A stretch of 64,000 nt of DNA, from IMG/VR virus record IMGVR_UViG_3300042549_004104, positions 1 through 64,000 of that record. The stretch is one strand, 5' to 3'. This DNA comes from a virus. Taxonomy: Duplodnaviria > Heunggongvirae > Uroviricota > Caudoviricetes. Below, one piece after another: positions 3,329 through 5,404 of the stretch (positions are counted from its first letter, which is position 1; every line of letters starts with the position of its first letter). The translations under genes were made by a program, and so were the position numbers. The notes beneath the pieces were generated by a model. It ran no database searches and was not told where the DNA came from. It worked only from the letters and a program-made list of their open reading frames with translations.

Positions 3329-3420
3329 TGGCGGAAGACGGAGGAGTCGAACCCCATCCCTGTTAAGAGAACCTGGTTTTCAAGGCCAGTCGGCGGACCA
3401 TCCCACCTGCATCATCTTCC
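3329..3420 (-). tRNA. tRNA-Ser(TGA), non-canonical 8/4 fold
   Basis: Acceptor GGAAGATG/CGTCTTCC (8 bp), T stem GGGG/CCTC (4 bp), anticodon loop CTTGAAA, long variable arm, G73 CCA. Confidence 0.8.
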
Positions 3421-4084: not shown

Positions 4085-4161
4085 TGGTGCGACCTAAGAG
4101 ATTCGAACTCCTGACCCCTAAGTTCGTAGCCTAGTGCTCTATCCAACTGAGCTAAGGTCGC
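4085..4161 (-). tRNA. tRNA-Arg(ACG)
   Basis: Anticodon arm CTAGG-CTACGAA-CTTAG; A20; CCA. Confidence 0.93.
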
Positions 4162-4169
4162 ATATAAAA

Positions 4170-4230
4170 CAGGATAGCATCTTTTTTTCATTAAAAGTGA
4201 AAATTTGAATTGTTTGCTGTTGCTATCCTA
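4170..4230 (-). ncRNA. ACAGCAA-motif RNA carrying a tRNA-Lys(UUU)-like anticodon stem-loop
   Basis: Stem AGGATAGCA/TGCTATCCT, then ACAGCAA; inner hairpin TTTTCA-CTTTTAA-TGAAAA. Confidence 0.65.
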
Positions 4231-4234
4231 AAAC

Positions 4235-4310
4235 TGGCATCCTGCACGGGAATCGAACCCGTCTCTGCGACTTGAAAGGCCACTGTTCTTAACCGATAAA
4301 CTAGCAGGAT
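4235..4310 (-). tRNA. tRNA-Glu(TTC)
   Basis: Anticodon arm GTGGC-CTTTCAA-GTCGC; CCA. Confidence 0.9.
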
Positions 4311-4320
4311 ATGAATAAAA

Positions 4321-4431
4321 CAGGATACATTCTTGACGAATGCTCTACCATTGAGCTAATCTGGCATAAAGCCAAATGTTGGACTTGAACCAACGACACA
4401 TCGTTTGATGTAGTTTGCTGTATGTATCCTA
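4321..4431 (-). ncRNA. ACAGCAA-motif RNA with circularly permuted tRNA body (YrlA/Y-RNA-like)
   Basis: Stem AGGATACAT/ATGTATCCT and ACAGCAA, then T arm GTTGG-TTCAAGT-CCAAC, closed acceptor ATTTGGC-TTTAT-GCCAGAT, D arm GCTC-AATGGTA-GAGC. Confidence 0.8.
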
Positions 4432-4590: not shown

Positions 4591-4653
4591 ACATGTTTTT
4601 AATAGTCAAGTGCGTCCTTCAACCTTCACAGGGTCTGATTTTTTCCTCGCACT

Positions 4654-4727
4654 ATGCTATTCTAAAACATACTAACGACTTAATTTCTCAAGCCGGGTCT
4701 GTGTGTCAGTATGTTTTAGAATAGCAT
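4654..4727 (-). ncRNA. long hairpin RNA element
   Basis: Perfect 20-bp inverted repeat 4654-4673/4708-4727 capped by GGCTTGA-GAAA-TTAAGTC (GNRA loop on the minus strand). Confidence 0.55.
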
Positions 4728-4753
4728 GATGTATCTTTCAACATCCATGCTAT

Positions 4754-5081: not shown

Positions 5082-5117
5082 AAAAACCCCTGAGACTGTT
5101 TAGTTTCCCAGGGGTTT
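5082..5117 (-). terminator. intrinsic terminator of putative attenuator
   Basis: AAACCCCTGGGA-loop-TCTCAGGGGTTT followed by a U run, about 20 nt after the leader stop codon. Confidence 0.8.
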
Positions 5118-5137
5118 CATAAATTTGTTAGTTTCAG

Positions 5138-5299
5138 TTACTTTGAACCTACTCCCTCTATGAAACTTCCGGGTAACCCCTCATCATTATATGAGCGAAT
5201 ACTAGGGTTAATCGTACCTGCAAAGGCGAACACGGATTGCTGAGGTGCTATTGACCACATGCTTCTATGTTTCAGCGATTGACAAGTAATATTTTTCAT
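5138..5299 (-). CDS. attenuator leader peptide (53 aa, all 20 amino acids)
   Basis: MKNITCQSLKHRSMWSIAPQQSVFAFAGTINPSIRSYNDEGLPGSFIEGVGSK*; codons 43-48 are complementary to the 5' arm of the terminator. Confidence 0.7.
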   Translation of the reverse strand: MKNITCQSLKHRSMWSIAPQQSVFAFAGTINPSIRSYNDEGLPGSFIEGVGSK

Positions 5300-5375: not shown

Positions 5376-5404
5376 AGTATAACAGAGTTTTTGTTTCTCG
5401 TCAA
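5376..5404 (-). promoter_or_regulatory. sigma70-type promoter of the tRNA operon
   Basis: TTGACG-17 nt-TATACT, about 75 nt upstream of the leader ATG. Confidence 0.75.

Follow-up and report, generated by a model that had tools for sequence, protein, structure and literature searches.

The minus strand at positions 4,170 to 4,230 of the window, the 64,000-nucleotide stretch analysed here, carries a small RNA gene. Its predicted product is a conserved RNA that resembles the Y RNAs of Ro60 in kind and carries an anticodon arm, a cargo previously undescribed for Y RNAs; a function can be proposed for it. It belongs to a modular family, as the preliminary description had suggested, in which a constant handle carries variable tRNA parts, and the gene co-occurring with this family encodes a Ro60-fold protein matching DUF2828 and DUF7788.

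The element and its genomic setting

RNAfold reproduced exactly the fold given in Table 1 (-13.2 kcal/mol, z -3.95), and 0/200 shuffled sequences were as stable. The closing stem of this element is 10 bp long, the inner stem presents the loop CUUUUAA (4197-4191), and AAGA separates the inner hairpin from the 3' strand. Model R1 matched the element at 4168-4231 with 52.1 bits, this copy belonging to its training set. The element fills the 73-nt spacer between tRNA-Glu and tRNA-Arg(ACG). Neither ARAGORN nor Rfam called it as a tRNA, and it has no cloverleaf, acceptor stem or CCA; at the gathering score, Rfam found tRNAs alone in the 64-kb window. The loop had been identified as the tRNA-Lys(UUU) anticodon loop, and it is identical, letter for letter, to that of the phage's own tRNA-Lys(UUU), the stem of which (CCGG/CCGG, G+C-rich) differs from the inner stem of the element.

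The framework shared with the sister RNA (given as 4321-4431) was recovered in both folds, each with 0/200 shuffles as stable (sister z -4.66). The closing stem of the sister differs yet pairs (GAUACAU/AUGUAUC), so that the earlier observation of distinct carrier stems with preserved pairing holds. The sister cargo follows the T-acceptor-D order of YrlA, and within this phage tRNA parts are split between the two RNAs, with the elbow in 4321-4430 and the anticodon arm in 4170-4230.

Table 1. Features of the element, its surroundings and the other frame copies in the genome
Feature	Position	Strand	Basis or remark
Small RNA gene: closing stem, CAGCAA handle and lone tRNA-Lys(UUU)-type anticodon hairpin	4170..4230	-	Fold; model R1
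Closing stem, 5' strand UAGGAUAGCA	4230-4221	-	Fold; family core A-G-N5, 7 bp
Closing stem, 3' strand UGCUAUCCUG, ending CUG(U)	4179-4170	-	Fold; UUUUA next
ACAGCAA; CAGCAA (4219-4214) is the predicted protein-binding handle	4220-4214	-	Unpaired in fold
Anticodon-arm mimic	4185..4203	-	6-bp stem UUUUCA (4203-4198)/UGAAAA (4190-4185)
tRNA-Glu(UUC)	4235..4310	-	Upstream neighbour; its CCA end 4 nt before element
tRNA-Arg(ACG)	4085..4161	-	Downstream neighbour
Sister RNA	4321..4430	-	Same handle; tRNA parts in permuted order (T arm, closed acceptor stem, D arm), anticodon loop absent
53-aa leader ORF	5138..5299	-	Upstream of tRNA array; conserved in relatives
Terminator-like hairpin with U run	5082..5118	-	Fold and sequence; after leader ORF
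Frame copy	357611-357556	-	Second copy with loop CUUUUAA
Frame copy	351159-350994	-	Direct scan
Frame copy	350981-350743	-	Seventh stem pair mismatched
Frame copy	350690-350636	-	Ends 31 nt ahead of DUF2828 gene start codon (350604)
Frame copies	4430-4321 and 4229-4170	-	Sister RNA and element

The virus record is 359,563 bases long and is rated 100% complete and 'linear'; the window covers its first 64 kb. ARAGORN found 35 genes genome-wide, corresponding to 34 tRNAs, all on the minus strand, and one tmRNA (146402-146878, tag ANDSQFALAA). One block of tRNAs lies at each end of the record (351-359 kb and 0.3-4.6 kb), and a search for an end repeat found none. Since relatives (L066, L085, L093 and L097) hold the same Lys mimic and tRNA-Lys(UUU) in one locus, we infer that both blocks belong to one joined array. 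The statement that the window has no tRNA-Lys gene was correct, none of its 15 tRNA genes being Lys, but misleading: the genome encodes tRNA-Lys(UUU) (358462-358535) and tRNA-Lys(CUU) (358539-358613) on one strand, and the idea that the phage lacks tRNA-Lys is therefore rejected. All six frame copies in the genome lie on the minus strand, and three of them directly precede the DUF2828/DUF7788 gene; the gene-proximal handle copy recurs in relatives. Two of the six are long handle RNAs (166 and 239 nt; 350743-351159) in which the cargo, conserved in relatives, shows no obvious likeness to tRNA.

The leader ORF upstream of the array had counterparts in 10/10 relatives where it was readable (11/96 loci matched the region), with conserved KHxxxWS and PSIRG stretches in the peptide. 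The consensus terminator scan did not list the 5082-5118 hairpin. Leader and hairpin together form a possible translation-sensing attenuator for the phage tRNA genes, and the earlier suggestion that it co-induces the RNA is plausible from the sequence. Consensus matching alone placed promoter-like sites at 5404, 5051 and 4522 (10 found, 6.4 expected), two promoter-like sites lying downstream of the leader peptide and terminator-like hairpin. Element-like sequence from relatives was present among lake RNA-library contigs in 4/4 runs, and one 63-nt contig spans 4166-4229; every run contained less than 0.2 of the words. These contigs were rejected as evidence of a discrete RNA, because others branch at 4166 and contigs can neither show ends nor exclude DNA.

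Other features of the region and genome were also recorded. A long near-perfect hairpin at 4649-4732 (23-nt arms, z -8.5), immediately upstream of tRNA-Gln, is a possible RNase III-type processing site. A tRNA-like gene missed by ARAGORN (3333-3420, minus strand; weak tRNA-Sec model match, 35.8 bits) is probably a long-arm tRNA-Ser(UGA). The phage also encodes an RNA polymerase omega-like protein (L003:6317-6547, minus strand).

The handle family and its displayed loops

A single 7-nt loop could arise by chance in AT-rich DNA, but the family statistics indicate that this loop did not. Viral contigs were scanned for the handle alone, with the loop unspecified, and 7 of the 64 parts yielded 140 loci, all of them distinct elements, with an estimate of about 1,200 stretches. 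Two stem positions (6-7) had been left free, and 118/140 elements paired at both (partner-shuffled mean 28.9, maximum 42). The remaining 22 were dropped from the loop counts and reused as chance controls for co-occurrence. In a hand-picked alignment of 41 rows, from which 8/49 misaligned rows were left out, six of the seven stem pairs change on both sides. The core of the handle is CAGCAA, the preceding base being variable in copies beyond ACAGCAA and ATAGCAA, and cargo sizes range from none to 240 nt. The structured RNA family is almost certainly real.

A hairpin of at least 5 bp closing a CU-NNN-AA loop was present in 42/118 elements, against a mean of 0.4 and a maximum of 2 in dinucleotide shuffles, an enrichment of inner loops for anticodon loops of the sort that the preliminary description had anticipated. 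With at least 4 bp, the count was 48/118 against 0.9 shuffled, and 70/118 short frames (~60%) had no such hairpin. The 48 loops displayed the anticodons UUU (19), UGU (8), UCU (5), UGA (5), GCA (3), GUA (2) and GCU (2), with CAU, GGA, CUU and GAU once each. The Lys loop CUUUUAA leads (19/118, in 7 different stems), followed by Thr-UGU, but a family displaying at least 11 anticodons weakens the original proposal of Lys specificity. Frames closed by other stems (55 of them distinct) were collected from genome contigs as well as cultured phages, and 13/66 carried an anticodon hairpin against 0.31 shuffled; four of these 13 were Lys loops, one of them in Aeromonas phage LAh_9.

Neither A34 nor a stop-reading anticodon occurred in the 48 loops (0/48 for each), despite 43% A. 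All 48 have U36 or A36, with U34 in 37; C36 or G36 was found in 0/48 mimic loops as against 93/336 real tRNA genes with CU-NNN-AA loops. The loop is conserved and the stem is not, the G+C content of mimic stems being 0.21 compared with ~0.6 in tRNA-Lys genes. These counts refer to related sequences rather than independent events, so their independence is overstated. We consider it very probable that the loop is under selection as an anticodon mimic.

Larger assemblies of the same parts were also observed. A full permuted tRNA cargo, with anticodon arm, T arm, closed acceptor stem and D arm, was seen in L065, L081 and L249:6840-6960. In LAh_9 (L248:928-4968), eight handle RNAs, including Lys and Met anticodon loops, stand ahead of the DUF2828 gene, with ten model R1 matches genome-wide. 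Mycobacteriophage DuncansLeg carries a copy with a Ser-GCU loop. A 76-nt tandem repeat of the handle frame occurs in a giant-virus bin (L145:121-333), and also in L119 and L205; the bin of L145 has a DUF7788 gene and that of L119 none.

The Ro60-like partner gene and known RNA systems

The partner gene (349177-350604, 475 aa) matches DUF2828 and DUF7788. No sequence match of its product to TROVE or to a solved Ro60 was found with the TROVE profile or a PDB sequence search: PF05731 had 0 matches in this genome (the control matched in 2/14), and an ESM Atlas feature search gave no link beyond DUF2828/DUF7788. A structure model built from 60 diverse homologs (pLDDT 88.4, pTM 0.88), which replaced a first model based on 42 close homologs (pLDDT 66), had 13 PDB matches at E <= 0.001. 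All 12 matches listed were Ro60/Rsr chains, at 12-15% identity (best Ro60 match TM 0.63, E 8e-9). The modelled protein shows the Ro60 fold, a helical ring with a vWA domain, by Foldseek as the single method of assignment. D277, S279 and S281 are invariant, a pattern that we take to be the vWA metal site. Among representatives at 50% identity, 5,983 are relatives of the protein, and DUF2828 matches were found in 702 cultured phage records, including Felix O1-like coliphages and cluster L mycobacteriophages.

Gene and frame occur together. In the co-occurrence set (75 records for the 140 loci, many of them fragments), DUF7788 was above the cut-off in 41/60 records with a stem-passing element and in 0/15 with a stem-failing match, thus answering which gene accompanies the family. 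In records of at least 100 kb, the gene was present in 14/17 with a true frame versus 0/3 with a chance match, three records over 100 kb having a true frame and no DUF7788 gene. Model R1 matched 13/21 genomes, each of which carries the gene. Neither gene nor match was seen in T5, T4, Bxz1, phage G and RaK2, and KVP40, chosen as a control, carries both. With the six training genomes left out, R1 matched 7/10 cultured phages with the gene and 0/5 without it (p 0.019). The model covers short RNAs only, detecting 3/6 copies in this genome, and it missed Campylobacter and Staphylococcus copies that were seen by direct scan. In phage ME3, the gene was present and no frame was found. Among 80 genome contigs examined beside the gene, many of which may be phage sequence in assembled genomes, 66 frames (38 loci) lay on the strand of the gene and 6 on the other. 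Near the Ro60-like gene, CAGCAA recurs with a wide variety of stems, and we predict with good confidence that the DUF2828/DUF7788 protein binds the handle RNA. In Listeria phage cka11 (L252:3470-4021), a ROOL-like RNA (86 bits, gathering score 99) was noted ~650 nt upstream of handle RNAs and a DUF2828 gene. The T5 tRNA region (L254:285-645) has annotated stable RNAs of unexplained function, one of them tRNA-like, in which no CAGCAA frame was found.

The closest parallels come from YrlA and phage Y RNAs (Rfam RF02553; Chen et al. 2014, PMC4201824; Wang et al., 10.1101/312249). YrlA with Ro60/Rsr is alike in its pairing 5' and 3' ends, a conserved motif on the 5' side, a tRNA-mimic cargo and a nearby gene for a HEAT-ring and vWA protein, and the Y RNA/Ro60 design of a protein-binding end stem plus effector module, as outlined in PMC4201824, would by analogy match this family. 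The sister RNA shares the T-acceptor-D order, with 29 bits against a gathering score of 69, whereas RF02553 had no match to 4170-4230, where the T, acceptor and D modules present in the sister are absent. YrlA is described without an anticodon loop in the text of 10.1101/312249, and 4170-4230 has only that part of a tRNA. The YrlA motif GNCGAA was present in 0/118 handles, a set selected for CAGCAA, and the partner of YrlA is TROVE, in place of which DUF2828/DUF7788 is found here. Thermus phage phiLo, with phiRo60 and Yrl1/Yrl2 (PMC12135203), also combines a phage Ro60-fold protein with adjacent small RNAs and a proposed counter-defence role, and the phiRo60 structure (9kop) was among the top structural matches of the partner model (TM 0.60, 15% identity). 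However, the phiLo system is reported to have a CGAA motif and to act on PNPase, and neither 'anticodon' nor 'CAGCAA' occurs in the main text of that paper.

Dictyostelium Class I RNAs (RF01414; Kjellin et al. 2021, PMC7919456) are described as 42-65 nt RNAs with a short end-joining stem and a variable interior. By that description, the frame of the element shares their invariant 5' G, start AAG, end CUGU and unpaired motif ending C..CAA. RF01414 gave 22.8 bits for the element and 28-30 bits for three LAh_9 copies (best 29.8), all below the gathering score of 41.5. The present family differs in its stem of at least 7 bp and in having U at motif position 3 in only 43/118 elements. The known partner of Class I RNAs, the RRM protein Rnp1A, and their DUSE promoter are both eukaryote-specific, and the main text of the same paper makes no mention of anticodons. 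The element is therefore neither a YrlA RNA, by motif, score and TROVE gene, nor a Class I RNA, by score, although its frame closely resembles that of the Class I RNAs. No description of this RNA family, nor of an RNA ligand for DUF2828, was found in Rfam or in the literature searched, which comprised few subscription papers and no supplements.

A possible bait for anticodon nucleases and competing explanations

The reading that we tentatively prefer is that the handle-bound RNA displaying the Lys loop is a putative protected, unchargeable bait for loop-reading host anticodon nucleases of the PrrC/RloC type. The RNA would be transcribed with the tRNA array and cut out as the flanking tRNA-Glu and tRNA-Arg mature; the ring protein would clamp its joined 5' and 3' ends, as Ro60 does on Y RNA, and stabilise it. 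The exposed loop could then compete with host and phage tRNA-Lys for the nucleases, alongside the phage's working tRNA-Lys(UUU) with its different stem, and sister RNAs with other anticodons or the tRNA elbow may cover enzymes reading other tRNA surfaces. Conservation of the loop, and not of the stem, suggests that the reader is probably a loop-reading enzyme. The target of PrrC is tRNA-Lys(UUU), and both PrrC and RloC are reported to cleave isolated anticodon stem-loops in vitro (PMC1950546, PMC3458546). Hughes et al. (PMC7790460) considered that YrlA might competitively inhibit an anticodon nuclease, which gives the idea a precedent and no proof. Phage tRNAs described as defeating PrrC, PARIS and retron-Eco7 (PMC11555353, PMC12409363) share the tRNA-array setting and the anticodons (Lys UUU, Thr UGU, Tyr GUA), but they are presented there as chargeable replacements for cut tRNAs, whereas the element, having no acceptor end, could only compete or signal.

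PARIS AriB had been put forward, with PrrC, as a nuclease for which such RNAs could be decoys. Its main targets are given as Lys(UUU) and Thr(UGU) (PMC12409363), coinciding with the two commonest mimic loops, which counts in favour of a bait. The same source indicates that cutting is abolished by U39->A and needs contacts outside the anticodon arm (D-loop). U39 is kept in 32/32 Lys mimics versus 6/18 tRNA-Lys genes of related phages and 49/95 metagenome tRNA-Lys sequences, a contrast that fits a bait beside an evasive working tRNA and is confounded by A31-U39 in 71/77 mimics whatever their anticodon. However, the AriB site U36AAUCA41 occurs in only 8/32 Lys mimics and in neither copy of this genome; the element reads U36AAUGA41 and lacks a D loop. 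The case for AriB as the target of this copy is thus weakened, and an AriB-specific decoy role for it is rejected.

Several observations bear on a bait from the other side. The ~60% of short frames without a strict anticodon hairpin mean that baiting cannot be the role of the whole family, and the stems of the mimics do not resemble those of tRNAs. RloC is reported to have preferred a stem-loop that was modified. A nuclease with turnover would be little hindered by a substrate that it can cut, unless the bait were abundant or slow to release.

Known Y RNAs are described as tethers (PMC4201824, PMC12135203), and the arm might likewise serve, without being sacrificed, as the docking surface that links the Ro60-like ring to an anticodon-binding enzyme of host or phage origin, for tRNA quality control, salvage or decay. 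This precedent, the shared two-module design and cargos ranging from nothing to 240 nt speak for it, as does an RNA ligase two genes from the partner gene in Serratia phage BF and ~3.7 kb away in LAh_9. We nonetheless consider it unlikely: 11 different anticodons are needless for one effector, and the Rnl2, RtcB and CCA-enzyme profiles had no match in this genome (the Rnl1 profile, matching neither this genome nor its control, was uninformative).

That one handle copy ends so close to the DUF2828 start codon (350636 versus 350604), an arrangement recurring in relatives, would suit a sensing role. Cleavage of the loop by a host nuclease could release or switch the Ro60-like protein, which might act, for example, on its own leader or on damaged tRNA, and the Salmonella Rsr/Yrl operon is reported to respond to cleaved tRNA (PMC7790460). 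Closing stem and CAGCAA would remain intact after such a cut, making release not obvious, and no signalling domain was found in the partner protein; this explanation appears distinctly unlikely.

The restriction of the 48 loops to U36 or A36, which counts against a bait, also fits tRNA-modifying enzymes. U36-A37-A38 and A36-A37-A38 are the substrate motifs of t6A and i6A formation, and the mimic loops match them; together with the absence of C36 and G36 and the excess of U34, this would agree with sequestration of modifying enzymes or synthetases (t6A37, i6A37 and wobble-U enzymes, LysRS), by which host translation would be shifted toward phage tRNAs. AT-rich descent from one CUUUUAA ancestor may explain the bias (p = 0.027, 11 distinct anticodons), and starved modification would also hit the ~35 tRNAs of the phage itself. 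SerRS ignores the anticodon, so that the Ser loops (UGA, GCU) argue against synthetases and fit a nuclease better. We regard such sequestration as very unlikely.

A functionless loop, left by decay of a permuted tRNA or belonging to a spacer hairpin that aids transcript processing, would be in keeping with the full permuted tRNA cargos (L065, L081, KP2025), of which lone arms could be truncations, and with the variable position and presence of the element between relatives, but is highly improbable given a loop fixed while its stem changes compensatorily (7 stems), its recurrence in unrelated handles and lineages, and no drift toward A34 or stop anticodons.

Phages are known to answer tRNA-cutting defences with resistant tRNAs, with repair enzymes and with inhibitor proteins. 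If the bait for anticodon nucleases is correct, an unchargeable RNA showing the anticodon loop alone would be a different strategy, and the displayed anticodons could report the tRNA-targeting defences that phages meet in nature. A wider proposal, which we hold to be doubtful, is that DUF2828/DUF7788 proteins and CAGCAA-handle RNAs constitute a second Ro60/Y RNA system, a programmable decoy platform of phages with interchangeable cassettes, of which Dictyostelium Class I RNAs are a eukaryotic branch. If true, each cassette would show one tRNA surface in order to neutralise one class of defences aimed at tRNAs. Should the bait idea prove wrong, the handle-plus-cargo family remains, as does its linkage to the gene; the family supplies a testable ligand for the unexplained protein DUF2828 and offers a lead on the Class I RNAs of Dictyostelium.
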